Below, one piece after another: positions 37,686-62,339 of a stretch of DNA of 64,000 nt; positions within the stretch are counted from its first letter, which is position 1; each line of letters begins with the position of its first letter. Under the pieces are notes generated by a model. The model did not search any database, was not told where the DNA came from, and saw only the letters and a program-made list of their open reading frames with translations. Where the stretch lies: contig PKRJ02000002.1 of assembly GCA_017577365.2 (NCBI GenBank), forward strand, positions 5,921 through 69,920, written 5' to 3'. This DNA comes from Gammaproteobacteria bacterium. GTDB taxonomy: Bacteria; Pseudomonadota; Gammaproteobacteria; Steroidobacterales; Rariloculaceae. The position numbers were made by a program, and so were the translations under genes.

Positions 37686-37701
37686 TGGCACGACGATTGC
37701 T
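37686..37701 (+). promoter_or_regulatory. sigma54 promoter of the TonB receptor/ureohydrolase operon
   Basis: TGGCAC-GACGA-TTGCT, a perfect consensus, with an IHF-like TAAGTCATTGTT at 37654 and palindromes at 37500-37551. Confidence 0.78.
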
Positions 37702-37844
37702 GGAACCTTTTCGCCACGGCACACAAAGCGATCGCAGGCAGCACTCGTTGTTGCAATGCAATCGTCGCGTCGTGCGCGGAGCCATCACACAGAACGTCGA
37801 TCACAAGGAAGCGTCGAGAACTTCCTTCGCGCAGCGGAGCGACC

Positions 37845-40800
37845 ATGACCAGCATCGACAATCTTGCCCGGAGCCGGCTGAGCTATTTGATCGCACTCTG
37901 CACAGGCACTGCAGTTGCGCCGGCCGCCGACGCTCAGGAAGTGCCTTCCAGGACCCTCGATGGTTTCGTCGAGGAAGTCGTAGTGACCGGCAGCCGAATG
38001 GTGCGGTCCAACGCGAACACGGCTCAGCCGATCTCGACGATCAGCGCGGAGACGCTGAGACAGACCGGCACGACGGACATCGGCGAGATCCTCAACGACA
38101 ACCCGGCGCTCTTGTCGTCGATCACGTCGAGCAATTCGCTGGACAACGAGCCGGGAAACGTCGGAGCCGCCGACAACGTCGGCGGAAGCGCGCTCGATCT
38201 CAGGGGACTCGGTTTCCATCGGACGTTGACGCTCGTGAACGGGCGTCGGCACGTATCGGGAATCGAAGGAACGTTGGCGGTAGACATATCGACCATCCCT
38301 TCGGCATTGATCGAAAGCGTCGAGGTGCTCACCGGCGGTGCGTCCGCGGTGTACGGAGCCGACGCGGTGACCGGCGTCGTCAACATCGTGCTCAAAGACG
38401 ACTTCGAGGGATTCGAGCTCGATCTCCGTCCGGGCGTCTCCGGCGAAGGCGACGCGGAGACGTCGAGCCTCAGCCTGCTCTTCGGCCGGAACTTCAACGA
38501 GCGACACGGAAACGTGATCGTCTCGTTCCAGCACGAGTACAGCGCCGGGCTGCGTCAGGGTGATCGCGACTTTCTCGCGAACGACGGCATGCACGACGAC
38601 GACGCGAACCCCGCTCTGCGTTTTCAGCACGGCGACATCGATGCGGCGTCGACGCCGAACTTCAGCAGATACTACGACTTCTCCAACACCGGCTTGTATC
38701 CGGCCGGGTTACGCATTCCGACCGCGGAGAGCTTCATTGCGCAGTACGAGCAGGCATTCGGTGAAACGCCTGCGTTGACTGCAGCCGAGCTCGCGTTGAT
38801 CGAAAGAGCGGCGACCGCGCCCCCGCGAGTCTTCTTGCCCGGGCGGACGTTCAACGTGACGTCGCCTTACGGCGTCGTCGCCATCGGCACTTTCGGCACC
38901 GGCTCGATTCCCCTCGGCGCGGAGCCGGATGTCGACGGCGACGGCACGCCCGATTGCCTGCAGAGCTTTACCGGATACAACTCCACGTTCGCGGGCGCGG
39001 CTTCGTTCGGCGGAGCCGGCGGGTGCTGGTTTCTCGACGAGTCCGGCAATCCCGTTCCGTACAAGGACGGCTTGATAGCCAGCAACTTCAACCAGTTCGG
39101 GGCATCGCAGAGCTTCATCGCGCCGAACTCGCCCTACGTTCTGCCCAAGGAGGAAAAGTACGCGGTCAATTTCAACGGCCGTTACGAGTTCTCGCCCAAA
39201 GCGGAGCTTTTCTGGGAATCGAAATACGTCTATCACGAGGTGGAGTTCGGCGGCGGCGGCCACAATTTCACGGATTTGCTCTACGGCGCGCCGGACAACC
39301 CGTTCTTGCCGGAAGCGCTGAAGCCCTATGCCGACAACGAAGGTCATCCTGTCGTGGGGCCCGGCGGCCTGTACATTTCCCGCGATTCCGACGATTGGGG
39401 GCCGAACATCTCGACGAACGAGCGCACGACATACAGGTTGGTAACCGGCGCTCGCGGCTCCTTCGACAAGCCCGCGCTCGATTACGAGATCTCGGCGAAT
39501 TTCGGTCGGTTCGAGCGAAAGCTGATCGATCGCGAGGCGATGATCACGGACCGCTTCTTCGCCGCGATCGACGTCGTCACGCATCCGGAGACGGGCGAGC
39601 CCGTCTGTCGCTCGGATCTCGATCCTACCGCGTATCCTCCGACGACCCCCTTCAACATTCCGACCTACGTGGGCGGCGGCGCGCCTTCTCCCTTCTTCAC
39701 GTTCACGCCGGGCGACAGGCAGTGTAAACCGGCGAACATCTGGGGCGGACGCGGCGCGATCAGCCAGGAAGCGATCGACTTCTTCACGTATGACCGGATT
39801 GTCGAGGAGAGCATCGAGCAGAGCGTCGTCACGGGCTTCATCAGCGGCGACAGCAGTCGGCTGTTCTCCCTGCCCGGCGGTCCGGTCGGTTTCGTGCTCG
39901 GCGCGGAATGGCGTGAAGAGAAAAGCCGGCAGACGTTCGACGAGTACGATCGCGGCATCATTCAGGTGGCCGGCGTCACGCCGGACGGCACGCCCTACTC
40001 CCCTGGAGATTTCGTCGGCGACGTGAGCAATGCCGCCGCGCTCGGCGCGGATCCGTCGACGACGCTCGCGAATACCGATGCGAGCTACGACGTGTGGGAC
40101 GTGTTCGCGGAGCTCTCGTTGCCCTTGCTCGCGTCGAAGCCTTTCGCGGACGAGTTGACGATCGACGCGGCCGTGCGGCGAGCCGACTACTCGACGTTCG
40201 GCAATAACACGACGTATCGCTACGGCTTGGTCTGGGCGCCGGTGAGCGACGTTCGTTTCCGCGCGAACTACAGCAGGGCGATACGAGTACCGAACCTGTT
40301 CGAGCTGTACTCGCCTGAGCAGGGTCAGCGTTTCCGCCCCGTGGATCCGTGCGACGCCGGCCAGATCTCCCAGGCGCCCGATCCCGCGCTCAGGCAGGCG
40401 AACTGCGTCGCTCACCTCGCGTCGTTCAACGTGCCTCTGGAGAACGTCTTCGATGCCTCCGGCAACTACATCTTCGACGATCCGCTGTCGGCCGGCTTCC
40501 CGGGAGTCATAGGCGGAAATCCCAATCTCGAGCCGGAAGACGCGACGACGAAGACTTTCGGAGTCGTGCTCCAGCCGCCGAAGGTCGACCGCCTGGTTCT
40601 GTCGCTCGACTATTGGGATATCGTCATCGACGACGCGATCTCCAGCATCTCCGCGCAGAACATCGTCAACGGCTGTTACGACGCGCCGTCGATCAACAAT
40701 CCGTTCTGCGAGCTGATCCAGCGAAACTCGAATCCGACCTCGGCGCAGGCGGGCGGATTCACGTTCCTACGTCAGACCATGCTGAACTTCGGCGCCGCCG

Positions 40801-41288
40801 AGGCGTCGGGCTGGGATTTCAACGCGTCTTACACGCTGGAAGCCGGACGATTCATCGTCGGAATCGACGGTATCGTGACGAAACAGAACAAGCTGAAGTT
40901 CATCGAGCCGACGAATCCGGGCGAACCTCCGTCGATCGACGACGAGCTCGGCGAGATGCGCCGGCCCGAATGGTCTTCGCAGCTTTCCGTGAACGTCTCG
41001 ACCGGTCGAATCTCGGCGTCCTGGCAGACGCAGTACTTGAGCGAGCAGGTGCTCGGATACGAGGACGGCGGTGAGATCGAAACGGCGCTGCAGAACTTCG
41101 GCCCGGCTGCCTTCACGGACGACGTGCTCATCCACAACGTCAGCGGTGCGTACGACGCGAGCGACAGGCTGCGGCTCTACGGCGGTATCGCCAACGTCAC
41201 CGACGTGAAGCCCTTCGTGACGGAGCGGTCGTATCCGGTCAGCCCCGTCGGCCGGGCGTTCTACGTCGGCGTGAACTTCAGGCTCTAG
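37845..41288 (+). CDS. TonB-dependent outer-membrane receptor (about 1147 aa)
   Basis: Signal peptide; TonB box EEVVVTGS; plug RTLTLVNGRRH...IESVEVLTGGASAVYGADAVTGVVN; GNPNLEPE; C-terminal GRAFYVGVNFRL. Confidence 0.95.
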   Translation: MTSIDNLARSRLSYLIALCTGTAVAPAADAQEVPSRTLDGFVEEVVVTGSRMVRSNANTAQPISTISAETLRQTGTTDIGEILNDNPALLSSITSSNSLDNEPGNVGAADNVGGSALDLRGLGFHRTLTLVNGRRHVSGIEGTLAVDISTIPSALIESVEVLTGGASAVYGADAVTGVVNIVLKDDFEGFELDLRPGVSGEGDAETSSLSLLFGRNFNERHGNVIVSFQHEYSAGLRQGDRDFLANDGMHDDDANPALRFQHGDIDAASTPNFSRYYDFSNTGLYPAGLRIPTAESFIAQYEQAFGETPALTAAELALIERAATAPPRVFLPGRTFNVTSPYGVVAIGTFGTGSIPLGAEPDVDGDGTPDCLQSFTGYNSTFAGAASFGGAGGCWFLDESGNPVPYKDGLIASNFNQFGASQSFIAPNSPYVLPKEEKYAVNFNGRYEFSPKAELFWESKYVYHEVEFGGGGHNFTDLLYGAPDNPFLPEALKPYADNEGHPVVGPGGLYISRDSDDWGPNISTNERTTYRLVTGARGSFDKPALDYEISANFGRFERKLIDREAMITDRFFAAIDVVTHPETGEPVCRSDLDPTAYPPTTPFNIPTYVGGGAPSPFFTFTPGDRQCKPANIWGGRGAISQEAIDFFTYDRIVEESIEQSVVTGFISGDSSRLFSLPGGPVGFVLGAEWREEKSRQTFDEYDRGIIQVAGVTPDGTPYSPGDFVGDVSNAAALGADPSTTLANTDASYDVWDVFAELSLPLLASKPFADELTIDAAVRRADYSTFGNNTTYRYGLVWAPVSDVRFRANYSRAIRVPNLFELYSPEQGQRFRPVDPCDAGQISQAPDPALRQANCVAHLASFNVPLENVFDASGNYIFDDPLSAGFPGVIGGNPNLEPEDATTKTFGVVLQPPKVDRLVLSLDYWDIVIDDAISSISAQNIVNGCYDAPSINNPFCELIQRNSNPTSAQAGGFTFLRQTMLNFGAAEASGWDFNASYTLEAGRFIVGIDGIVTKQNKLKFIEPTNPGEPPSIDDELGEMRRPEWSSQLSVNVSTGRISASWQTQYLSEQVLGYEDGGEIETALQNFGPAAFTDDVLIHNVSGAYDASDRLRLYGGIANVTDVKPFVTERSYPVSPVGRAFYVGVNFRL

Positions 41289-41371
41289 TGCAACGGCGTC
41301 GGCCGGCCGAACGCGTGCGGCACAGCGCACCCGGCCGGCCGCGCGAAACGAACAAGGACAGGACTCGAGCG

Positions 41372-42796
41372 ATGCATGTTCGTGCTTCATCGGCGCGCCG
41401 GCTCGCGCGCCACGCCGCCGCGGCCTGTATCTCGGCCGTGGCCGCTCCCGCGATCGCGCAGGTCGATCTTCCGGACTCGCTGCGCCCCAAGCTCGAGCTG
41501 CTCACTCCCGAGCAGCGCGAGTTCCTCGGAAGCGATTTCGTCGAGCGGTTCGCGCCGAGCCGAGAAAAGCTGATCGAAGCGCTCGAAAAGCGCTCGCCCG
41601 AGGAGGTCAAGGCGTACGTCGACGCGATGATGTGGGTCGAGCGTCAACAGAAATTCGAGGCAGACCGTGACTTCGCCGCGATCCCGCTGAATACCGAATC
41701 GCCGACCTTCAACGCATGGAAGATTCGCCGGCCGCGAAGCTTCGATCCGCCTCGGGAGCCTGGACCGATCGACCTTTCGCGCTACATGGGAGGCGGGAGC
41801 GGCATTCCGACGTTCGCGGGCGCGCCGGTAGCGCTGACGCCCGAAGATCTCGTCGCCGGTAACGTCGAGGTGGCGATCGTCGGCGCGCCGCTCAACATGG
41901 GGTCCGGTTGGCGGGACGCTGACCACGGCCCGCTCGCGCTGCGGCTCATGGGCCGTTACATGGCGGGCAACGACCAGTATACGCAGGTGAACCCGTCGGA
42001 GGTGCTCAACATCGTCGACTACGGCGACATCGCCATCGACAACGACAGCACGGAGCGCAGCATGCAGCACGTGCGCGAGGTGGTCAGAGAGATCGCCCAG
42101 ACGGGCGCGATTCCCGTGATCATCGGCGGCGATCACTCGCTCGAGTATCCGGACGTCGCCGCGATGATCGACGTGTACGGCAAAGGCAACGTCACGATCA
42201 TTCACTTCGACGCCCACTACGACATCGGACGCAACCGGCCTCATCTCATCGATCACGGGCAGCCGATCTATCGCTTGCTGTCGGAAGGCCTCATCAAGGG
42301 CGGCGATTACATCCAGGTCGGTCTGCGCGCGAGCGGACCGGACGAAAAGACGTACCGATGGATGCGCGAGGAAGGCTTCCGCTATCACACGATGGCCGAG
42401 GTCGAGCGGTACGGATGGGACCACGTTCTCGAGGAGGTCCTGGCGGAGGCCAAAGCGAACGGCCGCAGGCTCTTCATCTCGTTCGACGTGGACGTGCTCG
42501 ACCCGTCGTACATCGCCGGCACCGGGACGCCGGTGCCGGGCGGGCTGACGCCGCGGGAGGCGATTCCGATCGTGCGTCGGCTCTGCGCGGAGAACGACAT
42601 GGTCGGCTTCGACCTGGTCGAGGTCGCTCCCGAGCTCGATCCGACGTATGTGACGAGCCTGCACAGCGCGTTCATCGTCAAGGCATGCCTGACCGGAATC
42701 GCCATGAGAAAGCTCGGGCTCACGGAGCCGCACTACCTGAATCCCGTGACGCTCGATCACGCGCAGGACGGTCGCCGCGAGGAGAACGAACGATGA
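41372..42796 (+). CDS. Secreted agmatinase/ureohydrolase family protein with N-terminal extension; metal site intact
   Basis: Signal peptide ending AIA-Q; GGDHS, HFDAHYD, DHG, IQVGLR, SFDVDVLDP, PGGLT and DLVEVAP motifs. Confidence 0.9.
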   Translation: MHVRASSARRLARHAAAACISAVAAPAIAQVDLPDSLRPKLELLTPEQREFLGSDFVERFAPSREKLIEALEKRSPEEVKAYVDAMMWVERQQKFEADRDFAAIPLNTESPTFNAWKIRRPRSFDPPREPGPIDLSRYMGGGSGIPTFAGAPVALTPEDLVAGNVEVAIVGAPLNMGSGWRDADHGPLALRLMGRYMAGNDQYTQVNPSEVLNIVDYGDIAIDNDSTERSMQHVREVVREIAQTGAIPVIIGGDHSLEYPDVAAMIDVYGKGNVTIIHFDAHYDIGRNRPHLIDHGQPIYRLLSEGLIKGGDYIQVGLRASGPDEKTYRWMREEGFRYHTMAEVERYGWDHVLEEVLAEAKANGRRLFISFDVDVLDPSYIAGTGTPVPGGLTPREAIPIVRRLCAENDMVGFDLVEVAPELDPTYVTSLHSAFIVKACLTGIAMRKLGLTEPHYLNPVTLDHAQDGRREENER

Positions 42797-43668
42797 CGAA
42801 GACAACGCGCGGCTTCCTGTTCGCCGCGACTTTCTGCTTGCTGCAGCTCGGAGGCGCGACGGCATCGGCCGACGACGTGACCGCGCCGGTCGAGCCGAGC
42901 CTCGAGCACAAGCTGAAGGCGCTCTCTCCGAAGCAGCGCGAGTTTCTCGAAGGGCCGGGTCCCCTGCGGCTCTTTCCGAGTCGCGGAAAGCTCGTCGAGG
43001 AGCTCGAGCGGCGGTCGCCGGACGAGGTGAGACAGCTCGTCGCCGACATGATGGCCGCGGTGGCCGCGTTCGCCTACCGGCCCGGCGAGGACATGGGTGC
43101 GATTCCGTTGAATCCCGAGTCGCCGCAGTTCAACTCGTTCAAGGTGCTGAAGCCGCGCGCCCTCGACGAGCTCGAGCGCGCGCCGGGCCCCTTCAGCGTC
43201 AAGCGTTACATCTACGAGAGAGGAGGCATACCCACGTTCGCCGGCGCGCCCGTGGCGCTGACTCCCGAGGATCTCGTCGCCGGTGCGGTCGACGTCGCGA
43301 TCGCCGGCATCCCGCAGAACATGAGCAGCGGAAAGCGGGACGCTCGCAACGGTCCGAACGCGATGCGCGCGATGCACGGCATCGCCGATCGCGACCTCTA
43401 CTCGATGATCGATCCGGGCGCCGTGCTGAACATCGTCGATTACGGCGACTTCGCCGTCGATCGAATGAGCCTCGAGCGCGGTCTCGATCATGCCTACGAC
43501 ATGGTGCTCGACGTCGTCGCCGCGGGCGCCGTGCCGTTCCTCGTCGGCGGCGATCACTCGCTCATGTATCCGAGCGTCAAGGCCGTGCGCGACGTGCGTC
43601 CCGGCGAGCCGCTCGGCGTCGTGCATTTCGGCGCGCACCACAACGCCGAGCGCGACGGTTCTCGCTCG
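42793..43668 (+). pseudogene. Second ureohydrolase paralogue, N-terminal part (interrupted)
   Basis: Collinear with the upstream paralogue (GIPTFAGAPVALTPEDLVAG identical; GGDHS), then homology stops after HFGAHHNAER. Confidence 0.85.
43662..43668 (+). repeat. 7-bp direct repeat TCGCTCG at the left junction of the inserted block
   Basis: The same heptamer occurs at 57813-57819. It lies in a 9-bp inverted repeat, CGCCGAGCG-N10-CGCTCGGCG. Confidence 0.6.
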
Positions 43669-43745
43669 GCGGCGGGCGGAGCGGCTCCGCCGCCGACGCC
43701 GCGCCGCCTCCGCCTGCGCTGCCGACGTCGACCGAGATTCCAGGC

Positions 43746-44579
43746 GTGATCGCGGGCGGCGAGACATGGCGCGTCGTCTGGTCCTGGGAAGGCAACAATG
43801 CGGACGGCATCATCGCGGACGACGGCGGCAGGATGCTCTTCGCGAACAACGATGCGAGCAACGTGATGCGCCTCGACCCGGCGACCGGGCTCGCCGAGAT
43901 CATTCACGAGGACACGCGGACCGGCGGCGCGCTGTCGCGCAACAAGACCGGCGCGCTGTTCGTCGCCGCGCGCGGATTGCGCTCGGGGATCATTCAGCTC
44001 GAGCCCGAGCGCAGGGAGCTCGCGGCCTCGTTTCGCGGCGAGCCGCTCGAGTGCGTCGGCGGTGTGCTGAACGACCTCGCCGCCGACGCTCGCGGCGGCG
44101 TCTATTTCACGGTCACCGGAACGGGGCTTTTCTACGCGAACCCGCAGGGCGAGGTCACGCAGTACGGCGAGGGGATCACGGCCGCGAACGGCGTCGTGCT
44201 GAGCCCGGACGAGACGACGCTCTACGTCACGAACGGGGAGGTCGTGCTCGCGTTCGACGTCGAGGCCGACGGTGCGCTCGCGAACGGGCGCGAGTTCGGG
44301 CGGCTTCGCGGCGGACGGAGCGGCGACGGCTCGGCGGTCGACAGCGAAGGGCGCCTCTACGTTTCCACCGGCTCGTCCGTCGACGTCTTTGCGCCGGACG
44401 GGGAGTTCCTCGGGTCGATCCCGGGCCCGCAGGGCATTCACGGCGTCGCCTTCGGCGGCCCGGACAAGAAGACGCTGTTCGGCATCGTGTTCTACGGCGG
44501 CTGGGGCACGCCGAGCGCGCGCAATCAGGTCGTCGCGATCCCGATGATCGCGCAAGGCTACTTGGGGCGAGCGAAGTAG
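43746..44579 (+). CDS. SMP-30/gluconolactonase family protein, probably 5'-truncated
   Basis: NADG, LNDL, ANGVVLSPDE and GDGSAVDSEGRLY motifs. The frame continues upstream as a Pro/Ala linker to the junction with no RBS or signal peptide. Confidence 0.85.
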   Translation: MIAGGETWRVVWSWEGNNADGIIADDGGRMLFANNDASNVMRLDPATGLAEIIHEDTRTGGALSRNKTGALFVAARGLRSGIIQLEPERRELAASFRGEPLECVGGVLNDLAADARGGVYFTVTGTGLFYANPQGEVTQYGEGITAANGVVLSPDETTLYVTNGEVVLAFDVEADGALANGREFGRLRGGRSGDGSAVDSEGRLYVSTGSSVDVFAPDGEFLGSIPGPQGIHGVAFGGPDKKTLFGIVFYGGWGTPSARNQVVAIPMIAQGYLGRAK

Positions 44580-44663
44580 CCCGGCGGGGACGTGCCGCGG
44601 GAGGTTTACGATCGAGCGGCGCGTTCGGTATAAGCACGCCTTCGCCGAAGGAGAGGGGGGTCC

Positions 44664-45821: not shown

Positions 45822-45960
45822 CGGATCGGCATTTGCCAGGCCGCCGTCGCCTCGCGTCTGATCGGCCGTCGTCGTTTCGTTATACTGCAGCGCAACGCAC
45901 GGCGCAGGTGCACGCGCCTGCGGCGGACGCGATCGATCGGCGACGGCTTGGGGCGGCGAC

Positions 45961-47652: not shown

Positions 47653-47803
47653 TCCTGCCCGGTTTCTTCATTCGCCGTCATCGAGCGCGGCGGCGACCGC
47701 GGCAAGGTCGGCGACGAGATGCTCGAATGCGGTGTCGCGCTCGCCCACCGAGCCGAACGGCACGGTCTTGCCCGAGCCTCTGTGTCGAGGCTACGCTCGC
47801 GCC

Positions 47804-48076
47804 ATGGCCGTAGGTTGGGCCCGCGACGGGGCCGTTCAGGAACAAATCGACGCGAACGTCGAGGACGCGATCAACGCCGCGCGCAGCAGGCTGCCGACGG
47901 GCGAGAGCCTGGAGCATTGCGAAGACTGCGGCAGCGAGATCCCGAAGGCGAGGCGCGATGCGCTGCCGGGTGTTCGTCGCTGCGTGACCTGCCAGGCCGC
48001 GATCGACGACGCGGAACGCGCGGCGCCGCGCGCCGGCTACAACCGGCGCGGCAACAAGGACAGCCAGCTCCGCTAG
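47804..48076 (+). CDS. DksA/TraR family C4-type zinc-finger protein (YbiI-like)
   Basis: MAVGWARDGAVQEQID, CEDC...CVTC and YNRRGNKDSQLR. Confidence 0.9.
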   Translation: MAVGWARDGAVQEQIDANVEDAINAARSRLPTGESLEHCEDCGSEIPKARRDALPGVRRCVTCQAAIDDAERAAPRAGYNRRGNKDSQLR

Positions 48077-50297: not shown

Positions 50298-50328
50298 CCT
50301 CGCCCGCCCGGCGCGTTACGACGGAGTC

Positions 50329-51530: not shown

Positions 51531-51543
51531 GAGGAACGGACCT

Positions 51544-55900: not shown

Positions 55901-55946
55901 TTCGGGCCTGCTGGTCACCGGGCACGTTCGGCGATAGAGTGCGCGC

Positions 55947-56849
55947 ATGATGACGCGCCGAACCCTCCTCGCGCTGCCGTTCGCGGCCGGCCTCGCGCAG
56001 ATGCTGCACGCGCAGCCCGCGGGCCGCATGCAGCTCGCGCTGCATCAGAACACTTCGGGCGGCGCCGGCTTTCGCGGTTCGCTCGAAGGCTGGGCGCGCG
56101 CCGGCATCCGCTACGTCGAGCTGACGGACGTGCTGCTCGACGAGTTTCTCGAGAACGATACGCTCGACGGCGCGCGCCGGCTCCTCGCCGACCTCGGCCT
56201 GACCCCGGTGTCCGCGGCCGCCGTGCTGCCTGACGTATGGATACCGGGTCCCGAGCGCGAGGCATCGCTCGAGACGTGGCGCAAGCGCTGCGAGCAGTTC
56301 GCCGCGCTCGGGCTCGACAGGATCTACTGCCCGTCGATCACGACGCGGCCCGTCACGGCCGAGGATTTCGCGGCGACGCCGGACTGCATCCGCGAGGTCG
56401 GCGAGATCACGCGAGGCTTCGGTCTCACGGCGATGATCGAGTTCGCGCGGACGTCGACGCATCTCGCGACACTGCCGTCTACGCTCGCGGTGATCCGCGA
56501 GGCCGCGCATCCGAACGTCCGGCCGATGCTCGACTTCTTCCATTTCTGGTCCGGGCTCGGGAAGTTCGAGGATCTCGATCTCATCGAGCACGGCGAGCTC
56601 GCGCACGTGCACTTCCAGGATCTGAAGGACGGGCCGCGCGAGCTGATCGACAACGACTGGCGCCTGATTCCGGGCGACGGCGTCGCGCCGGTCGTGCGGA
56701 TCCTGCGCAAGCTCGCCGAGAAGGGCTACTCGGGGCCGCTGTCCGTCGAGCTCTTCCGCAGCGAGTTCGTCGACGGTGATCCGTTCGAGGTCGCCCGGGA
56801 GATCCGCGAGAAGTGCGAGGCGGTCATGAGCGCCGCCGGCGTGCTGTGA
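55947..56849 (+). CDS. Sugar phosphate isomerase/epimerase (xylose-isomerase-like TIM barrel) with a Tat-like signal
   Basis: TRRTLL N-terminus; MIEF, DFFH, HVHFQD, PGDG and SVELF motifs. Confidence 0.85.
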   Translation: MMTRRTLLALPFAAGLAQMLHAQPAGRMQLALHQNTSGGAGFRGSLEGWARAGIRYVELTDVLLDEFLENDTLDGARRLLADLGLTPVSAAAVLPDVWIPGPEREASLETWRKRCEQFAALGLDRIYCPSITTRPVTAEDFAATPDCIREVGEITRGFGLTAMIEFARTSTHLATLPSTLAVIREAAHPNVRPMLDFFHFWSGLGKFEDLDLIEHGELAHVHFQDLKDGPRELIDNDWRLIPGDGVAPVVRILRKLAEKGYSGPLSVELFRSEFVDGDPFEVAREIREKCEAVMSAAGVL

Positions 56850-56866
56850 TCGACTGACGCGGCCGG

Positions 56867-57814
56867 TCAGCGCGACTTCTTGGTCGGCTTCTTTTTCGCC
56901 GCCTTCTTCCGAGTCGCCTTCGCAGTCCGCTTCTTCGCGGCCTTTTTCGCGCGGGTTTTCTTCGCCGCACGCTTGGCCGGACGGCGTTGTGACTGCTTCG
57001 CGGTCTTTTTGGTGGTCTTCTTGGCAGTCTTCTTGGCGGTCTTGGTCGTCTTCTTGGCCGTCTTCTTCGCTGCCTTTTTAGCCGCCTTCTTAGCCGTCTT
57101 CTTAGCCGTCTTCTTTTTCGACTTCTTCGCTGTCTTCTTGCCGGCGCTCGCCTTCGTGGTCCTCTTACCTTTCGTGGAGGTGGTCTTGGCCTTCGTTGCT
57201 TTCTGCGCCGATGCTTTCTTCGCGGCCTTCTTCTTTGCAGCCTTCTTGTTTGCGGCCTTCTTTCTCTCCGCCTTCTTCGGGGGCGCCTCCTCTCCCGCAG
57301 GCGTCCTCGTCGCTGCCTTCTTCGTCGCCCGCTTCTCCTTCGCAGCCTTCACTGCCTCCGGCGCGGTCTCTTCCGCCGGCGCGTCGGTCCAGACCGGCGT
57401 CGAGCGCGCTTCGTACTCCGCCGTCGTGCCGCCGTCCGACCGTAAAGCCGCATCCGCGTCGGATTCGTCCGCGTCGGATGCATTCGTGTCGCCGCCGGAC
57501 GAGGGCGCCGCGTCCGCGGCGACGACGTGCAGCGCGAATGCCGCGCCGTACGGATCGAGCACCTGGGCGATGCGGTCTCCGTTCGGGACGTCCATCGGGC
57601 CGTTCTGCACGGATCCGCGCGCGGCCTCGAGCTTATCGAGCGTCGCCGCGAGGTCGGTCACCCGAACGTAGCTGAGCCACGCCGGGTCGCCGGCATCCTT
57701 GTCGTAAATGCCGCCGAGCTCCGTGTCGCCGCGGCCGAAGATCAGATACACGCCCGTCGGCCCGACGTCGGGCTCGCGGATCTTCTCCCAGCCGAAGAGC
57801 TCGCTGTAGAAGTC
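56867..57814 (-). CDS. VOC/glyoxalase-domain protein with a Lys/Ala-rich histone-H1-like tail, 5'-truncated
   Basis: The frame extends upstream of the track start as DFYSELFGWEK...WLSYVRV...GPMDVPNGDRIAQVLDPYGAAFAL, then KKAA/KKTA repeats. Homology is lost above about 57815. Confidence 0.8.
   Translation of the reverse strand, partial: DFYSELFGWEKIREPDVGPTGVYLIFGRGDTELGGIYDKDAGDPAWLSYVRVTDLAATLDKLEAARGSVQNGPMDVPNGDRIAQVLDPYGAAFALHVVAADAAPSSGGDTNASDADESDADAALRSDGGTTAEYEARSTPVWTDAPAEETAPEAVKAAKEKRATKKAATRTPAGEEAPPKKAERKKAANKKAAKKKAAKKASAQKATKAKTTSTKGKRTTKASAGKKTAKKSKKKTAKKTAKKAAKKAAKKTAKKTTKTAKKTAKKTTKKTAKQSQRRPAKRAAKKTRAKKAAKKRTAKATRKKAAKKKPTKKSR
56880..57260 (-). repeat. Coding low-complexity repeats (KKTA/KKAA tetrapeptides)
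   Basis: Recurrent 12-bp-period units such as TCTTAGCCGTCT on the plus strand. Confidence 0.8.
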
Positions 57815-57819
57815 GCTCG
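57813..57819 (+). repeat. 7-bp direct repeat TCGCTCG at the right junction of the inserted block
   Basis: Matches 43662-43668; the offset of 14151 bp is a multiple of 3. Confidence 0.6.
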
Positions 57820-58362
57820 CACACGATCTCCGACCGCCAGGCCGTCTACCGGCTGCTCGCCGAGGGCGTGATCGAGGGCAAGCACCTGATCCAGGTCGGC
57901 CTGCGCGGACCGCAGCTCGACCTCGAGACGCTCGAGTGGATGCGCGAGCAGGGCATTCGCTACCACACGATGGCGGAGGTGGCCTACCGCGGCTGGGACG
58001 CCGTCATGGAGCGCGTGCTCGCCGAGGCCAAGGCCGGGCCGGACCGCGTCTACGTGTCGTTCGACGTGAGCGTCATCGACCCGGTCGAGCTCGCGGCCGC
58101 CGGCCGCGCCGTTCCGGGCGGCTTGATGCTTCGCGAGGTCATTCCGCTCGTGCGGCGGCTCTGCGCCGAAACGCGGATCGTCGGGTTCGAGATCATGGAT
58201 CTCGCGCCGATGCTCGATCTGAGCTACCGGAGCGCGATGAACGCGAACTACGTGATGAACGCGTGTCTCTCCGGTATCGCGATGCGGAAGATGGGCGTGA
58301 CCGAGGAGAATTACATGCATCCTCTCGTTCTCGACCACGGCCAGGGAACGCCGGCGGAGTAG
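57820..58362 (+). pseudogene. Second ureohydrolase paralogue, C-terminal part
   Basis: HTISDRQAVYRLLAEGVIEGKHLIQVGLRGP...SFDVSVIDP...ACLSGIAMRKMG aligns with the first paralogue from where 42793-43668 stops. Confidence 0.85.
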
Positions 58363-58419
58363 TCGCGACTCGCGACTCCCCGCGTCCGACGCATCGCTAG
58401 TCGAGCTTTCGAAGACCGC

Positions 58420-59328
58420 ATGACCGACGAGGATTCTCGCGAATCGAAGCCGTCGCTGCACGGTCGACGGCTGCCGAGCGAGCCGACCGTGATCTTTCTG
58501 CTCTTGGCCGTCGCCATCTTCGCGTACGACGCGCTCGTCTCCGCGAAGCCGACGTCCGCCGACCTCGAGCACGACGGGGCGAGCCGCACCGTCGTCGTCA
58601 CGGACGCCATCCAGTCCGCCCTCGAGAGCGACTTCGAGTGGCTCTACGGTCGGCCGCCGAACGAGGACGAAAGGCGTCTTCTCGTTCGGCAATGGATCGA
58701 CGAGGAAGTCGTGTTCCGCAAAGCGCTCGCGGAAGGTTTGCACTTGAGCGACTCCAAGGTGCGCTCGCATCTCGTCGACAAGCTGCGCCTCCTCTGGGGC
58801 GGCACGCCCGAGCCTCCGGACGAAGCCGAGCTCTTCGAGTTCTACGTCGAGAACATCGAGGACTACTACAGCGAGACGCGCATCAGCTTCGATCAAGTCT
58901 TCTTCGCGGCGCGTCCTGAACGTCCCGGCGAGATTCGCGCGCGGCTCGCGGCCGGCGAGCGGATCGTCGGCGACAGCCACTGGCTCGGCAGCCGCCTGGA
59001 TCGTTATGCCGAGAGCGTTCTGCGGACCACGTTCGGCGGCGCTTTCTACGAGCGTCTGCTGTCCTCGGCGCCGGGGGAATGGATCGGTCCTCTCGAGTCT
59101 CCCAGAGGCTACCACTTCGTCCGCGTCATCGAGGTGACGAAACCGCAACCGATCCCTTACGCGGAGCTTCGGGAAAGACTCACGATGGACTACGTCTCGG
59201 CGGTACGCGAAGAGCGGATCGCGGCGAAGGTCGCCGAGCTTCGAGACGGCTACGAGATCGTCATCGAGCAGCGCGCAGCCCGCGACGGGCTCGACGACGC
59301 GCGAGCCGCGCGATGGGGCGCGGAATGA
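58420..59328 (+). CDS. Peptidyl-prolyl isomerase, PpiC/SurA-like, membrane-anchored
   Basis: N-terminal TM helix; EEVVFRKALAEGL; WIGPLESPRGYHFVRV. Confidence 0.8.
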   Translation: MTDEDSRESKPSLHGRRLPSEPTVIFLLLAVAIFAYDALVSAKPTSADLEHDGASRTVVVTDAIQSALESDFEWLYGRPPNEDERRLLVRQWIDEEVVFRKALAEGLHLSDSKVRSHLVDKLRLLWGGTPEPPDEAELFEFYVENIEDYYSETRISFDQVFFAARPERPGEIRARLAAGERIVGDSHWLGSRLDRYAESVLRTTFGGAFYERLLSSAPGEWIGPLESPRGYHFVRVIEVTKPQPIPYAELRERLTMDYVSAVREERIAAKVAELRDGYEIVIEQRAARDGLDDARAARWGAE

Positions 59329-60350
59329 CGTTCTCCGCCAGACTCATCGCGTGGCTCGCGACATGCGCCGCGGGCGCCGCGTTATCCGGGCCGGCGTGCG
59401 CCGACTATCTCGATATCGCACGGTTCGAGGTCACGGAGGACGGGAACGGCCGTTACCGCGTGGCGGCGACGCTGTCCGTCGCCGCGAATACCGAGCTCAA
59501 GGCGACGTGGCCCGCGAGTTGCACGCCTCTCTCTCGCGAGGTGCGCCGCCTTCACGATGGAAGCCTGGTCGAGTTCCACGTCGACTGTAGCCGGGCGTCG
59601 CCGACCGACATGAAGATCGGCATGCCGTGGGGGCGAGACGGCGCGATGCTCGAATGGGTACGCGGAGACGGTGTCGTCGAGTCGCGAATACTGCCCGGCG
59701 GATCGACCGGCAGCGTGATCGATCTGTCGGAACGCGACGCGGAAGGAGCTCCCGCCGGCTTCTGGACGACCGCGTGGCAGTACCTCGCGCTCGGCACCGA
59801 GCACGTGCTGATCGGATGGGATCACCTCGCGTTCGTCTTCTGTCTCGGCATGCTCGCCTCGGGCACGCGGCTCGCGTGGCTGATCTCCGCGTTCACGATC
59901 GGTCACTCGATCTCTCTGGCGCTCGCCCACTACGGCGTGCTGCGCATTCCGATCGGTCCCGTCGAGGCGCTCATCGCGTTGTCGGTCGTGCTCATGGCGC
60001 GTGAGGCGCTGCTGCGGCTTCGCGGCGCGACCGGTGCGCCGGACGCGGAAGGGCGCTCGTCCGAGCGGTATCGGCAGGTTTTCGTGACGGCTGCATTCGG
60101 TCTCGTGCACGGCCTCGGTTTCGCGAGCGTGCTCGGAGGGCTCGGCGTATCGCCGACTCGCACGGCAACAGCGCTCGCGTTCTTCAACGTCGGCGTCGAG
60201 ATCGGACAGCTGCTGTTCGTCGCCTCCGTGCTCCTCGCGATTCTCGGGCTCCGCAAGGTGCGGATCGACCGCGTCGCGTCACGAGCCGCGACGGCCTTCG
60301 TCGGCGGTCTCGGGCTCTACTGGACCGTCGAGCGCGTGATCGGATTCTGA
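59325..60350 (+). CDS. HupE/UreJ family protein (long form with an N-terminal periplasmic domain)
   Basis: GTEHVLIGWDHLAF, FTIGHSISL, FGLVHGLGFA and FNVGVEIGQ motifs. Confidence 0.88.
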   Translation: MTFSARLIAWLATCAAGAALSGPACADYLDIARFEVTEDGNGRYRVAATLSVAANTELKATWPASCTPLSREVRRLHDGSLVEFHVDCSRASPTDMKIGMPWGRDGAMLEWVRGDGVVESRILPGGSTGSVIDLSERDAEGAPAGFWTTAWQYLALGTEHVLIGWDHLAFVFCLGMLASGTRLAWLISAFTIGHSISLALAHYGVLRIPIGPVEALIALSVVLMAREALLRLRGATGAPDAEGRSSERYRQVFVTAAFGLVHGLGFASVLGGLGVSPTRTATALAFFNVGVEIGQLLFVASVLLAILGLRKVRIDRVASRAATAFVGGLGLYWTVERVIGF

Positions 60351-60380
60351 GGCGGCGTTGCCTCGAACGATGAGCTGGGT

Positions 60381-62339
60381 ATGAGCGAAAAAGTGAAACG
60401 GAAACTAGCGAAGGGAATCGGGAGCGCTTTGCTCGGCGCGGCGATCGCGACGGCGGACGCGACGGAGCACCCGTTGGATCCGCTGTCGTTCGACGAGCAC
60501 TGGGACGTGCTCCAAATCCTCTACGACGCGGGCAAGGTCGATCCCGACACGAAGTTCTCGGGCATTCACCTCTACGAGCCCGACAAAGCCGACGTTCTCG
60601 CGTGGACGCCCGGATCGCCGCGCCCCCGGCAGGCAAAGGCCGTCGTGCGGAACGGCGGCGAGGCCTTCGAAGCCGTGATCGATCTCGAGCGCCGGCGGCT
60701 CGAGTCGTACGAGAAGCTCGAAGGGGTTCAGCCCTATTTCACGTCCGGCGAAGACAGGAAGGTCCTCGACAAGATGCTCGAGCACCCCGACTTCGTCGCA
60801 GCGATCAAGCGCCGCGGCTACGAGGACACGACGTTCCTTCGCTGCTCGATCGGGCCTCCGGGCTACTTCGGAACGGACGAGCAGCGCGGTCGTCGGATCG
60901 GTCACGGCAGCTGCCGGGACGTGCGCGGCGTGCGCAACGGCTGGGTGCGGGGGCTCGCCGGGCTCGACGTGGTCGTCGACATGACCAATCAGGAAGTCAT
61001 CCGCGTCGTCGACGAGGGCATCGTGCCGATGCCGAAGACGAAGGCGGATTTCGATCGCACCTCGACCCCGCCTCCGCGCGAGGTTCCGAGCCCGATTCTC
61101 GTCAGTCAGCCCGGCGGGCCCGGTTTCGAGGTCGACGGGCACTGGATCTCATGGCAGAACTGGCGCTTCCATCTGCGTGCGGACCAGCGGGTCGGTCCCG
61201 TGCTGTCGATGGTCACGTACAAGGATGGCAACGACGTTCGCAGCGTCCTCTACCAAGCCTCGCTTTCCGAGATCTTCGTGCCGTATTCGGATCCGTCGTT
61301 TCATTGGTATCACCGCAATTTCCTCGATGCCGGCGAGTTCGCGGCACCCGGCCTGATGAAGCCTCTCGTCGCGGGCGCGGACTGCCCCGTTCACGCCAAG
61401 TATTTCAGCGCGTTGATCTCGAACGAGTCGGGGCACCCGCAAACGCGGCCGAACATCTATTGCGTGTTCGAGCGGGAAACCGGGGACCCGGCTTGGCGGC
61501 ACCTGAGCGACGAGCTCGATATCGCGCTCAAACGCGATCTCGTGGTTCGCAGCGTCGCGGTGATCGGTAACTACGACTACATCTTCGACTGGGTCTTCCA
61601 ACAGGACGGGTCCATCCACGTCGGTGTCGGCGCGACGGGCATCGTCGAGGCGAAAACGGTCGAAGCCCGAGATGCCCGCGCGGGAAGCAAAGATGACGAA
61701 TACGGTCGCTTCGTCGACGAGCACATCGTCGGCGTCAATCACGACCACTACTTCGCGTTCCGGCTCGATCTCGACGTCGACGGCACGCGGAACGACTTCG
61801 TCGTGGACCGCCTCGTCACGGAGATCCTGCCGCCGGAATCACCGCGACGGAGCGTGTGGAAGCGTGAGGCTTGGCAACCGCGCACCGAGCTCGAAGCGCG
61901 GTTGAACATGCATCACGACCATCCCGGGCTTTGGCGCTTCCTCAGCACGACGCGCACGACCCGCCTGGGTTATCCGACGAGCTATCAGATCAGACCGGGC
62001 ATGACGGCGGGCGTGCTGCTCAGCGAGGACGACTATCCGAGGCGCCGCGCCGGATTCATCGAGTACCACTTGTGGGTCACGCCGTACGATCGTGACGAGC
62101 TCTACGCGGCCGGGGATTATCCGACCCTCAGCGAGCCCGGCATGGGGCTGCCCGCGTGGACGAAAGCGAATCGCGACATCGTCGGCAAGGATATCGTCGC
62201 TTGGTATACCGTCGGGATGCACCACTTGGTTCGTGCCGAAGACTGGCCGGTCATGCCGGTGCTGTGGCACTGGTTCGAGATTCGCCCCTTCGACTATTTC
62301 GACGGGAATCCCGCGCTCGACTTGCCGCGTCCGCACTGA
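60381..62339 (+). CDS. tynA: Copper-containing primary amine oxidase, secreted
   Basis: HPLDPL; TPQ consensus GNYDY; Cu ligands NHDH and HH in GMHHLVRAEDWPVMP; signal peptide. Confidence 0.93.
   Translation: MSEKVKRKLAKGIGSALLGAAIATADATEHPLDPLSFDEHWDVLQILYDAGKVDPDTKFSGIHLYEPDKADVLAWTPGSPRPRQAKAVVRNGGEAFEAVIDLERRRLESYEKLEGVQPYFTSGEDRKVLDKMLEHPDFVAAIKRRGYEDTTFLRCSIGPPGYFGTDEQRGRRIGHGSCRDVRGVRNGWVRGLAGLDVVVDMTNQEVIRVVDEGIVPMPKTKADFDRTSTPPPREVPSPILVSQPGGPGFEVDGHWISWQNWRFHLRADQRVGPVLSMVTYKDGNDVRSVLYQASLSEIFVPYSDPSFHWYHRNFLDAGEFAAPGLMKPLVAGADCPVHAKYFSALISNESGHPQTRPNIYCVFERETGDPAWRHLSDELDIALKRDLVVRSVAVIGNYDYIFDWVFQQDGSIHVGVGATGIVEAKTVEARDARAGSKDDEYGRFVDEHIVGVNHDHYFAFRLDLDVDGTRNDFVVDRLVTEILPPESPRRSVWKREAWQPRTELEARLNMHHDHPGLWRFLSTTRTTRLGYPTSYQIRPGMTAGVLLSEDDYPRRRAGFIEYHLWVTPYDRDELYAAGDYPTLSEPGMGLPAWTKANRDIVGKDIVAWYTVGMHHLVRAEDWPVMPVLWHWFEIRPFDYFDGNPALDLPRPH

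Follow-up and report, generated by a model that had tools for sequence, protein, structure and literature searches.

A predicted exported ureohydrolase module next to a TonB receptor in marine bacteria, and its disruption by an inserted block in one gammaproteobacterium

Contig PKRJ02000002.1 carries a run of genes in which a large TonB-dependent receptor precedes two arginase-family products with signal-like N termini. This raises the question of whether guanidino compounds are cleaved to urea outside the cytoplasm and, if so, which of the neighboring genes belong to such a system. We analyzed 64,000 nucleotides of this contig (positions 5,921 to 69,920, forward strand), and this whole stretch is referred to as the window. 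The reading that we favor, with moderate confidence, is a nitrogen-regulated system that would act outside the cytoplasm, splitting off urea from guanidino compounds, and that is disrupted in this organism by a block of DNA inside one of the ureohydrolase genes. We infer substrate, metal, location and subunit contact from sequence and genomic context.

Gene order, conservation and the amine oxidase

The locus begins with an intergenic sigma-54 type promoter element on the plus strand (TGGCACGACGATTGCT, 37686 to 37701), an exact match to TGGCAC-N5-TTGCW that reads TGGCAC-N5-TTGCT and lies 144 nt upstream of the ATG of the receptor gene. It is one of three exact consensus matches in the window, where sites with two or fewer mismatches number 23 against 12.5 expected. 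The genes described next are all on the plus strand. The first encodes a TonB-dependent outer-membrane receptor of 1,147 aa (37845 to 41288; Pfam Plug and TonB_dep_Rec_b-barrel; signal-like N terminus). It is followed by ureohydrolase A, of the alpha or catalytic type (41372 to 42796; 474 aa; Pfam Arginase, E = 4e-73), and ureohydrolase B, of the beta or degenerate type, which is present as an N-terminal part of 292 codons (42793 to 43668; Arginase profile positions 2 to 125) and a C-terminal part of 182 codons (57813 to 58362; profile positions 148 to 276, from 57868). Next come a PpiC-type (Rotamase_2) protein with an N-terminal membrane anchor (58420 to 59328; 302 aa; PF13145, E = 3.7e-11), a HupE/UreJ-2 permease (HupE_UreJ_2; 59313 to 60350; 345 aa; PF13795, E = 1.3e-39), here called HupE-2, and a copper (TPQ) amine oxidase (60381 to 62339; 652 aa; Pfam Cu_amine_oxid, E = 1.6e-126). 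The stop of A and the start of B overlap by 4 nt, and the PpiC-like and HupE-2 genes overlap by 16 nt.

The initial annotation had given this same order from promoter to oxidase, and Pfam matches and coordinates recovered it. The tight co-directional packing that it described also stood, but the 14-kb block that it placed between genes sits inside gene B. It had further assigned an export signal or anchor to every product; by inspection by eye and hydrophobicity only, all six N termini are signal- or anchor-like: each opens with charged residues, followed by a hydrophobic run and an AxA-like site (best 12-mer Kyte-Doolittle scores of 1.76 to 3.32). Synteny with congeners ends at 37305 and picks up again near 64304, and the nine other genomes of the genus have no orthologue of either A or the amine oxidase. 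Leaving out the inserted block, we read the locus as an accessory island some 12.8 kb long.

We compared 79 genome loci around homologues of A and 80 metagenome loci around homologues of HupE-2. The synteny on which the initial annotation relied was kept for all but the amine oxidase: the receptor, A, B (joined by another A or A-B set), the PpiC-like protein and HupE-2 occur in this order in 12 of the 79 genome loci (L013 to L024), which are not 12 independent observations because these related Pseudohongiella-type genomes include near-duplicates (L015 and L016 resemble L013, and L020 and L021 are from one MAG). The same order was found in metagenome locus L104. The assigned sigma-54 promoter was likewise conserved, with a site of at most one mismatch 107 to 196 nt upstream of all 12 receptor genes of L013 to L024. 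In these Pseudohongiella-type loci, Urt and urease genes lie directly downstream of the module on the same strand. UrtA follows HupE-2 in 11 of the 12, the twelfth locus ending early; UrtA, UrtB and UrtC of L013 score above their NCBIfam cut-offs, and a urease alpha subunit above its cut-off lies on the same contig, 1 to 4 kb past the locus, in all five module-bearing genomes checked. The genome studied here (93.6% complete) has UrtABC on a separate 4.2-kb contig that does not adjoin the module; urease was not found in it, and urea carboxylase fell below its cut-off. Marine bacteria conserve the module, which seems not to have been described before. The literature searched contained no description of an exported guanidino/ureohydrolase system of this kind, in agreement with the novelty first claimed for it.

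The amine oxidase was not part of this conserved order. It had been counted as a member of the system, in a pathway in which a guanidino-amine is imported, urea is removed and the oxidase turns the freed amine into ammonia in the periplasm. That chemistry is plausible; enzymes of the agmatinase type yield a primary amine, and the E. coli amine oxidase is periplasmic. The window's enzyme is intact: among solved structures it is closest to that of the E. coli enzyme (E = 1.2e-111), to which its GNYDY (TPQ) and HDH (HxH) motifs align. Its 582 bits fall short of the NCBIfam primary-amine oxidase cut-off of 651. It has a signal-like N terminus, its gene follows HupE-2 on the same strand after a gap of 30 nt, and no terminator-like site was found; it is probably co-transcribed with HupE-2. 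It also shares a variable region with the module, and both are without an orthologue in the genus. However, an amine oxidase was found in none of the 79 genome loci or the 80 metagenome loci and in none of the five module-bearing genomes, which have Urt and urease in its place, and across 400 genomes of the class, the closest relative is just 38% identical (the count is 8 of 401 with the unpublished genome G079 included). The oxidase is a lineage-specific add-on in a variable region, not a defining part of the module. Since relatives lack it, a second periplasmic step would be particular to this genome at best, and we regard the full pathway as unlikely. Given the short gap, the lack of a terminator-like site and the common variable region, the oxidase may have been co-acquired with the module and may have a local functional link to it.

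The ureohydrolases, the receptor and the HupE-2 pair

A has intact GGDHS, DAHYD and DVDVLD motifs and all six metal ligands. It consists of a signal peptide, a helical N-terminal domain of about 65 aa and an arginase fold (structure model pLDDT 79.5, helices at residues 35 to 100). Among solved structures, it is closest to guanidinobutyrase 3nio (E = 7.5e-44), compared with E = 2e-18 for the metformin hydrolase alpha subunit (MfmA), and it falls under the NCBIfam agmatinase cut-offs (195 bits versus 302 and 148 versus 174). In a tree, the window's A is sister to 14 Pseudohongiella-type A proteins.

B begins with the signal peptide MTKTTRGFLFAATFCLLQLGGATASA. Its N-terminal half reads HFGAHHN where HFDAHYD would be expected, and its C-terminal half reads SFDVSVIDP where SFDVDVLDP would be expected. 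In every B-type protein (24 intact proteins and the split one of the window), G or S takes the place of the first Asp of DAHxD and S that of the second Asp of DxDxxD; in most, the last Asp of DAHxD is N. Two or three metal ligands are thus missing throughout the B type, while all 32 A-type proteins keep all of these Asp ligands. A and B fall into separate clades (SH-aLRT of 97 and 100), with the window's A and B at matching positions. The initial annotation had spoken of a ureohydrolase pair. The consistent loss of ligands from B-type proteins, which recalls the inactive beta subunit of metformin/dimethylguanidine hydrolase, suggests that A and B are probably one heteromeric enzyme, with B as its beta subunit, rather than two steps. 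N termini are signal-like or lipoprotein-like in all A and B homologues of 19 pair loci, and a hydrophobic N-terminal stretch is present in 51 of 66 further homologues. Export signals in the window and its relatives, judged by sequence inspection, support the claim that the enzymes are secreted.

In 12 loci, the gene immediately before an A/B pair encodes a receptor that is 63 to 67% identical; in nine loci with no HupE-2 nearby, a receptor of 42 to 46% identity immediately precedes a single exported ureohydrolase. In total, a related receptor precedes one or more exported ureohydrolases in 21 of the 79 genome loci. The PpiC-like protein has PTVIFLLLAVAIFAYDALV as its N-terminal anchor, and in 63 of the 80 metagenome loci the gene immediately before HupE-2 encodes a homologue of it. 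The two occur together widely, in most cases next to exported DUF3604 proteins or by themselves. They are a generic accessory pair, not specific to the A/B enzyme, and the dedicated folding and metal-loading module of the initial annotation is not supported. HupE-2 itself has a signal peptide, a periplasmic beta-sandwich (“anglerase”-like) domain and six transmembrane helices (structure model pLDDT 88.8). The beta-sandwich matched the structures of ZrgA (Z = 9.1), PA4063 (Z = 8.3) and 9gce, which is Ang-1 of a HupE/UreJ-2 protein (Z = 6.8). The predicted mature N terminus is Asp, not His; among 49 relatives, this residue is His in 28 and Asp in 21.

We propose that the operon would be driven by the sigma-54 promoter, as its site indicates, and that the large receptor would take a guanidino compound across the outer membrane, as its conserved adjacency suggests. 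A and B, exported through Sec, would form one enzyme in which A has six ligands and B, minus three, would be a structural partner, as in metformin/dimethylguanidine hydrolase; the degenerate site and the export signals are seen directly, and the heteromer is predicted. This enzyme would release urea in the periplasm. In Pseudohongiella-type loci, the gene order points to uptake of the urea by UrtABC and its splitting by urease, a flux that is likewise predicted. The anchored PpiC-like protein and HupE/UreJ-2, with its periplasmic domain of a metal-binding type, would be a generic pair that serves other exported metal hydrolases as well, and it would either supply metal to the periplasmic enzyme or import metal into the cell.

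A different role for the receptor has to be weighed. Receptor and HupE/UreJ-2 could form a metal-supply line for nickel, cobalt or copper, with a small ureohydrolase substrate entering via porins; the receptor would import a metal complex, and HupE-2 would pass the metal to the cytoplasm and urease or hold it for the exported enzyme. HupE/UreJ is a nickel permease family, urease requires nickel, and the HupE-2 genes of the Pseudohongiella type lie between the ureohydrolases and the Urt/urease genes. The periplasmic domain matches zinc-binding ZrgA, PA4063 and Ang-1, and Ang-1 is reported to bind Cu2+ (Kd of 74 nM) and Ni2+ (220 nM) (PMC12537917). A hupE gene is also reported from the metformin hydrolase operon (PMC11399263). 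However, the nine loci that have a receptor beside a ureohydrolase and no HupE-2 link the receptor with the enzyme and not with the permease, and the PpiC-like/HupE-2 pair mostly occurs without a receptor, which was present in 1 of 80 loci. The receptor reached no NCBIfam equivalog cut-off, siderophore and B12 equivalogs included, and its match to solved receptors is limited to the plug. The window's HupE-2 also lacks the N-terminal His that binds metal in Ang-1. We give a complete metal-supply line little credence; as for the cargo, it could be a metal complex rather than the substrate. Uptake of a guanidino compound by the receptor remains the reading that we prefer.

Disruption of gene B

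The inserted block (43669 to 57812, about 14.15 kb) lies between the two halves of B and is flanked by the 7-nt repeat TCGCTCG (43662 to 43668 and 57813 to 57819). The N-terminal frame of B enters the block and meets a stop at 43749, and the C-terminal part has its codon frame from 57814 without a start of its own. Summed, the halves equal the length of an intact B homologue to within 2 residues. With the block inside it, B is a broken gene: it is a pseudogene in this genome, and the PpiC-like, HupE-2 and oxidase genes are severed from the promoter.

The block encodes an SMP-30-type lactonase without its N terminus, a beta-lactamase-fold protein, a GMC oxidoreductase, a second TonB receptor, an ExbB-like protein, a CobN-like chelatase, a TIM-barrel protein and, on the minus strand, a VOC/glyoxalase protein without its N terminus. 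It is 98 to 99% identical to native DNA on three contigs of congener G006, in which the lactonase and VOC genes, cut at the block ends in the window, are complete. This identity begins at 43658 and ends at 57815; the native copies of four block genes in G000 are only 75 to 85% identical. The joins share only 3 to 11 nt. We propose that a piece of a congener's chromosome, about 14.15 kb long, was joined into the middle of B via very short sequence matches.

Fourteen runs contained 0.96 of the words of the junction stretch, and 20 runs from 11 studies contained it whole or in part. Contigs bridge the left junction in four of four runs from four studies (X1, 42600 to 44584; X2, 42600 to 44912; X7, 43247 to 44236; X11, 42600 to 43714). 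At the right junction, one of the four has a contig that crosses with 31 nt or more on either side (X7, 57457 to 58036); the other three show only unitigs that overlap by 30 nt and break at 57786 to 57815, where the assembly graph branches. No direct joint from 43668 to 57813 was among the 15 of 48 joints listed. The 214 contigs of the genome assembly, the near identity to another species of the genus that possibly shares the habitat and the breaks at the right junction might suggest an assembly or binning artefact, with an undamaged B in the actual organism. We regard this as highly improbable, since contigs cross both junctions, the assembly re-enters gene B at the very codon where it left it 14 kb earlier, the joins have too little in common for assemblers to join on, and no direct joint is among those listed.

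Comparison with known systems

UrtABCDE and urease adjoin the module in Pseudohongiella-type loci, not in the window. Like E. coli TynA/ECAO (1d6u), the window's oxidase has the TPQ motif, copper ligands and a predicted export signal, and its residues 27 to 647 align; unlike ECAO, it has no extra N-terminal domain, the alignment beginning at ECAO residue 91. HupE-2 resembles the Ang-1/Ang-2 HupE/UreJ-2 permeases in its signal peptide, periplasmic beta-sandwich and PF13795 transmembrane domain (PMC12537917; PDB 9GCE). Its sequence shows no detectable similarity to the solved Ang-1 domain, with no hit at all in a profile search of the PDB at E values up to 10, and HupE-2 has Asp as its first mature residue, where His is reported to be invariant (PMC12537917). 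The main text of that paper makes no mention of a PpiC-like partner or of arginase or DUF3604 neighbors.

For A, the best sequence matches are GbuA (3nio), guanidinopropionase and the agmatinase SpeB (E = 7.5e-44 to 1e-32), which have the same six metal ligands and release urea from a guanidino group. These are cytoplasmic homo-oligomers of about 310 to 330 aa, whereas A adds a signal peptide and about 140 N-terminal residues.

Metformin hydrolase (MefH/MfmAB/MetCaCb) and dimethylguanidine hydrolase (DmgH) are heteromeric Ni-dependent ureohydrolases. As in the module described here, metformin/dimethylguanidine hydrolase is encoded by tandem arginase-family genes, one with a complete binuclear site and one degenerate, with a hupE-type gene in the operon and a link to urea or urease genes. 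MefH and DmgH are reported to be active only as alpha/beta heteromers, with four of six ligands mutated in beta, and DmgH to cluster with urease genes (PMC11399263). In contrast to the window's locus, which has no HypA or HypB, these enzymes are cytoplasmic and HypA/HypB dependent; both subunits in the window carry, at their N termini, signal peptides and an additional helical domain, and they are linked with a TonB receptor and a PpiC-like protein. A is distant from MfmA, so the alpha/beta split would have arisen independently, and the heteromer analogy is one of convergent features, not of descent.

Layout and conservation of the operon

We drew up the gene list from Pfam and NCBIfam scans and from direct reading of the sequence. 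An exact match to the sigma-54 type consensus (TGGCAC-N5-TTGCT, 37686-37701) precedes a TonB-dependent receptor of 1147 aa (37845-41288), the arginase-family genes A (41372-42796; PF00491) and B (two pieces, with Pfam profile matches before 43668 and from 57868), a PpiC-type (Rotamase_2) protein (58420-59328), a HupE/UreJ-2 permease (HupE-2; 59313-60350; PF13795), and a copper amine oxidase (60381-62339; PF01179), all on the plus strand. The components named in the initial annotation were all recovered in this way. The receptor has a plug followed by a beta-barrel domain (PF07715, 63.6 bits; PF00593, 113.2 bits) and reached no specific NCBIfam equivalog cut-off. A and B overlap by 4 nt and the PpiC-like gene and HupE-2 by 16 nt, with 30 nt between HupE-2 and the oxidase. 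This spacing agrees with the earlier description of a tightly packed operon, which had missed that B itself is split by a 14-kb block.

Judged by sequence, the sigma-54 site has GG at -24 and GC at -12 in the TGGCAC-N5-TTGC spacing, on the correct strand and upstream of the first gene. A site with at most one mismatch was present 107 to 196 nt before the receptor gene in all 12 Pseudohongiella-type genome loci that carry the module (L013-L024). At up to two mismatches, the window holds 23 matches versus 12.5 expected, and none of the shuffles reached 23. Two more exact sigma-54-type sites (21231-21246, minus strand; 26265-26280, plus strand) lie in the exopolysaccharide gene region. A scan of 57700-62600 for sigma-70 promoters and terminators found none, with shuffles giving 0.3 and 2.6, and its simple consensus may not suit a genome of 67% G+C.

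Synteny was drawn from wide scans of genomes and metagenomes, the genome scan taking one genome per species. The genome scan gave 79 loci with A homologues. In 12 of these (L013-L024, from Pseudohongiella and allies, some being near-duplicates), the order is receptor, A, B, often a second A or A-B set, PpiC-like gene, and HupE-2. The receptors are 63 to 67% identical to that of the window, and B is intact in every one of the 12. A related receptor (42 to 46% identity) stands upstream of single exported ureohydrolases in nine further loci. The locus L022 (2306-9749) has two large TonB receptors in tandem before A/B, 63% and 51% identical to the window's, each with its own exact sigma-54 site. 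In another group of loci (L025-L029, L067, L075, and L105), a receptor-less pair has the B-type gene first and the A-type gene second, the B-type protein carrying SAHPD and GGDTS.

Among 40 relatives, no A orthologue was found; the best matches, 28 to 36% identical, were ordinary agmatinase-like genes. The oxidase was absent from all nine of the other genomes of the genus. Synteny with congeners ends at 37305 and resumes near 64304, which places the module and the oxidase together in a single variable region. The congener G004 shares, at 82%, the metallo-beta-lactamase-fold gene at 62403-63965.

The oxidase scored 423 bits against PF01179, and its GNYDY, HDH, and third His regions align with those of the E. 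coli amine oxidase. With the profile match, the Tyr of N-Y-D/E that is the precursor of TPQ, and the three copper-binding His residues all present, it is by sequence an intact TPQ enzyme that most resembles the periplasmic enzyme of E. coli. Among 400 genomes sampled from the class, the closest relative is 38% identical, and 8 of 401 genomes, counting the unpublished G079, have a match at E of 1e-100 or below. The position of the gene suggests co-transcription with HupE-2, and the proposed oxidation of an amine product is plausible. Conservation gives no support to the oxidase as a core part, since it was found in 0 of the 79 genome loci, 0 of 80 metagenome loci around HupE-2 relatives, and 0 of 5 module-bearing genomes. 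Of the gene neighbourhood first proposed, the receptor, A, B, PpiC-like gene, and HupE-2 are thus the part that is syntenic.

Disruption of gene B by a 14-kb block

The block of about 14.15 kb (43669-57812) had been described as intervening. It splits B, so that the operon is broken in this genome (G000). The Pfam arginase profile matches with its positions 2-125 immediately ahead of 43668 and with 148-276 from 57868 onward. The first half of B reads ...HFGAHHNAERDGSRS and continues out of frame until a stop codon at 43749; the second half picks up at ...RSHTISDRQAVYRLL. The summed length of the halves equals that of intact B homologues to within two residues. The 7-nt sequence TCGCTCG occurs at both joins (43662-43668 and 57813-57819) and was the sole repeat found at the block ends.

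The block encodes an SMP-30-type lactonase, a beta-lactamase-fold protein, a GMC oxidoreductase, a second TonB receptor, an ExbB-like protein, a CobN-like chelatase, a TIM-barrel protein, and, on the minus strand, a VOC protein. Its first and last genes (lactonase and VOC) lack their N-termini. The stretch at 48405-55900 brings together the TonB receptor (630 aa), the ExbB/MotA-like protein, and the CobN-type chelatase (1345 aa), with no cobalamin or chlorophyll genes nearby; it occurs at 73 to 82% identity in the congeners G004, G007, and G008 and is missing from G005 between the same flanking genes. The VOC/glyoxalase-fold gene (56867-57812), whose N-terminus was cut off by the insertion, encodes a long Lys/Ala-rich tail with AKKAAKK repeats, like histone H1-like DNA-binding tails.

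Three contigs of the congener G006 match the block at 98 to 99% identity, and the lactonase and VOC genes are complete there. This identity runs from window position 43658 to 57815, so that about 11 and about 3 bases are shared at the two joins. G000 has its own copies of four block genes elsewhere, only 75 to 85% identical. Our conclusion is that illegitimate recombination placed a piece of a related species' chromosome inside B.

An origin of the block in faulty assembly is unlikely. For the left-junction stretch, 0.96 of its words were found in 14 sequencing runs, and all or part of it in 20 runs from 11 studies (compost, soil, or fertiliser where the source was given). Contigs of four of four runs, from four studies, bridged the left join. 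The right join was bridged in one of the four, by a contig (X7) covering 57457-58036 with at least 31 nt on each side; in the other three, unitigs overlapped by 30 nt and broke at 57786-57815. These breaks fit a graph branch from a related VOC gene of other community members. No joint restoring an intact B was present among the 15 joints listed, of 48. A transposon, integron, or genomic island was rejected: no transposase or integrase family was among the Pfam matches in the block, which has no mobility genes, two truncated end genes, and only the 7-nt repeat.

The receptor, A, PpiC-like, HupE-2, and oxidase genes are all full-length in G000, and the insertion of the fragment into B therefore looks recent. 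If B is needed as its counterpart is in the heteromeric metformin hydrolase (MefH), the A/B enzyme would be inactive in this genome. The insertion is a clear example from nature of a 14-kb stretch of foreign chromosome being joined through a few matching bases.

The PpiC-like protein and HupE-2

The PpiC-like protein and HupE-2 had been taken for a folding and metal-loading module dedicated to this operon. Our scan with the HupE-2 alignment yielded 80 metagenome loci, and the PpiC-like gene was directly upstream of HupE-2 in 63. An A-type gene was nearby in just 5 of the 80, the receptor in 1, and the oxidase in 0. In 32 of the 80, a DUF3604 gene whose N-terminus shows a signal or lipobox lay no more than 1.5 kb from the pair, although just 29 of the 80 loci reach at least 2 kb upstream. 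A second PpiC-like/HupE-2 pair in G000 (contig C63, 2126-4026; 33% and 43% identical to the window's) neighbours a Na:alanine symporter, a GDSL lipase, and a DegP-like protease, with no adjoining metal hydrolase. From these neighbourhoods and the second pair, the pair is generic, not dedicated. Exported DUF3604 proteins of about 630 aa are its commonest neighbours (e.g., L112, L119, L141, L143, and L182), with a GDTHxHT motif near the N-terminus in L112 and L182 and two tandem copies in L119.

HupE-2 scored 135.8 bits against PF13795 (cut-off, 24.5). Its structural model (pLDDT, 88.8) has a signal peptide, a beta-sandwich at residues 36-137, and six helices at 150-344, so that HupE-2 is predicted to have the periplasmic beta-sandwich of anglerase-type HupE/UreJ-2 proteins. 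In a wide VIA search with the model, the sandwich matched the periplasmic zinc-binding proteins ZrgA (Z, 9.1; rmsd, 2.9; 99 aligned) and PA4063 (Z, 8.3). A further match was the Ang-1 domain, with bound copper, of a HupE/UreJ-2 protein (9gce; Z, 6.8; rmsd, 3.4; 102 aligned). Foldseek of the model against the PDB gave no match at E of 0.001 or below, and a profile of 49 HupE-2 proteins gave none against PDB sequences at E of 10 or below.

Anglerase domains have been proposed to catch metal by an invariant N-terminal His and then feed the permease, and the Ang-1 family is reported to have 100% His at the mature N-terminus (PMC12537917). In contrast to Ang-1, the subfamily of the window's HupE-2 has either His or Asp: with the cleavage site placed by eye from the AxA pattern, 28 of 49 aligned proteins (the window's and 48 relatives) have His as the first mature residue and 21 have Asp. 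The window's HupE-2 has no mono-histidine brace, as its predicted mature protein starts DYLDIARF, with Asp first. The His/Asp split may mark different metals. PpiC-like, arginase, and DUF3604 neighbours go unmentioned in the main text of that report.

Complex prediction for HupE-2 with the PpiC-like protein, each entered as its alignment, gave a median score of 0.60 (runs, 0.60, 0.63, and 0.52) versus 0.00 for the best of three controls, graded as weak support. In the calibration, the passes at or below 0.60 were 7 of 80 solved complexes and both of the 2 passing mismatched pairs (of 110), and we take the score as evidence neither for nor against a complex. At least 64% of contacts recurred between runs, and partner pLDDT was at least 82. 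The pair may load the exported enzymes with metal or may import metal. The link of this pair to exported metal hydrolases provides a testable role for PF13795 partners and DUF3604, families of unknown function, and bears on how metal enzymes that are exported unfolded get the right metal.

A ureohydrolase pair with export signals and known heteromeric hydrolases

The products of the operon had been described as exported. As judged from the residue pattern, each begins with charged residues followed by a hydrophobic segment and an AxA-like site, or, in the PpiC-like protein, with a membrane anchor. All homologues in the pair loci begin with Sec-type or lipoprotein-type signals. Another 66 homologues were drawn from Gammaproteobacteria, Alphaproteobacteria, Gemmatimonadota, Acidobacteriota, and other groups, and 51 of them are hydrophobic over a stretch at the N-terminus. 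Export thus appears to be a trait of this ureohydrolase family, as far as N-terminal patterns can tell. Tat export of A was considered for its SARRLAR stretch; the homologues show ordinary N-termini that would suit Sec or lipoprotein export. To our knowledge, all characterised bacterial ureohydrolases are cytoplasmic. Our literature search found no paper on a periplasmic, secreted, or exported agmatinase, arginase, or ureohydrolase, none describing a TonB-coupled periplasmic guanidino-nitrogen system, and none on the PF13795/HupE UreJ 2 family or PF12228 by those names, with DUF3604 only in passing mentions. The initial annotation appears to be right that this is an exported, receptor-coupled guanidino-nitrogen system, seemingly undescribed.

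Against PF00491 (cut-off, 22 bits), A scored 246.7 and the B halves 74.7 and 96.9. A fell below the agmatinase cut-offs (TIGR01230, 147.7 versus 174.3; NF002564, 195.4 versus 302) and was not assigned as an agmatinase. We take the six binuclear-metal ligands to be the His of GGDHS and the residues of Asp-x-His-x-Asp and Asp-x-Asp. A retains all six (GGDHS, DAHYD, and DVDVLD), and 3 of the 6 are changed in B (GAHHN and DVSVID). We compared these motifs in 32 A-type and 24 intact B-type proteins, plus the two B halves of the window. All 32 A-type proteins keep GGDHS, DAHxD, and DxDxxD. In every B-type protein, DAHxD has Gly or Ser in place of its first Asp and DxDxxD has Ser in place of its second, and in most, Asn replaces the last Asp of DAHxD; the metal site is degenerate at two to three or more positions in each. 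Two successive enzymatic steps had been proposed; with B-type proteins always degenerate at metal ligands, A and B are probably one heteromeric enzyme.

In our tree, A, B, and single-gene forms fell into separate clades (SH-aLRT, 97, 100, and 98). The window's A and B are each sister to all Pseudohongiella-type proteins of their kind (support, 99 and 96), and these matching positions imply that the pair is old and was inherited together. A helical N-terminal domain of about 65 residues is common to A and B and absent from the single forms.

Urea handling genes accompany the module elsewhere. UrtA lies downstream of HupE-2 in 11 of the 12 Pseudohongiella-type loci, the twelfth ending early; UrtA, UrtB, and UrtC pass NCBIfam cut-offs; and urease alpha follows 1 to 4 kb further on the same contig in all five module-bearing genomes checked. 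In G000, UrtABC is on a separate 4.2-kb contig (C98), its UrtA being 78.7% identical to that of Pseudohongiella sp. O18. Neither urease alpha nor urea carboxylase exceeded its cut-off in G000, which at 93.6% completeness is no proof of absence. Within the genus, urea genes were found only in G000 and in G006, the congener that matches the block, where urea transporter and urease genes are split over the ends of three contigs (C118, C157, and C206).

Taken together, these data allow a two-part reading that we offer tentatively, as a possibility we would not yet bet on. First, marine and sediment bacteria would share an undescribed, widespread periplasmic scavenging of guanidino nitrogen, by TonB-dependent import, a Sec-exported alpha/beta ureohydrolase with an independently evolved inactive partner, and passage of urea to Urt and urease. 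Second, the PpiC-like protein and the HupE/UreJ-2 "anglerase" would be a general periplasmic machine folding and metal-loading Sec-exported binuclear hydrolases (arginase-fold or DUF3604), with the His/Asp N-terminus setting the metal. Guanidino compounds (agmatine, guanidino acids, methylguanidines, guanidine, and metformin-like drugs) are a poorly mapped organic nitrogen pool. If the reading is true, an exported enzyme tied to a TonB receptor, a sigma-54 promoter, a urea transporter, and urease would give bacteria a new means of harvesting their nitrogen, import of the carbon skeleton would not be required, and the PpiC-like/HupE-2 pair would correspond, in the periplasm, to HypA/HypB or UreEFG.

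The closest known designs are MefH and the dimethylguanidine hydrolase DmgH. Published work (PMC11399263) describes both as active only as an alpha/beta heteromer whose beta subunit has 4 of 6 ligands mutated, metformin hydrolase as needing nickel, its operon as holding hypA, hypB, and hupE, and DmgH as clustering with urease genes. Like these, A/B is a tandem pair with one degenerate subunit, the stop of A overlapping the start of B. MefH and DmgH are cytoplasmic and matured by HypA/HypB encoded alongside, whereas both A and B have signal peptides, and HypA/HypB-type genes were absent among the Pfam matches of the window locus and of two Pseudohongiella-type loci (L013 and L017). A is nearer to guanidinobutyrase (E, 7.5e-44) than to the metformin hydrolase alpha subunit (E, 2e-18), and the active/inactive subunit design thus arose independently. 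By this analogy, A/B would work like MefH and DmgH from outside their clade; if so, the pairing of an active with an inactive subunit, known from metformin hydrolase, would have originated a second time, independently.
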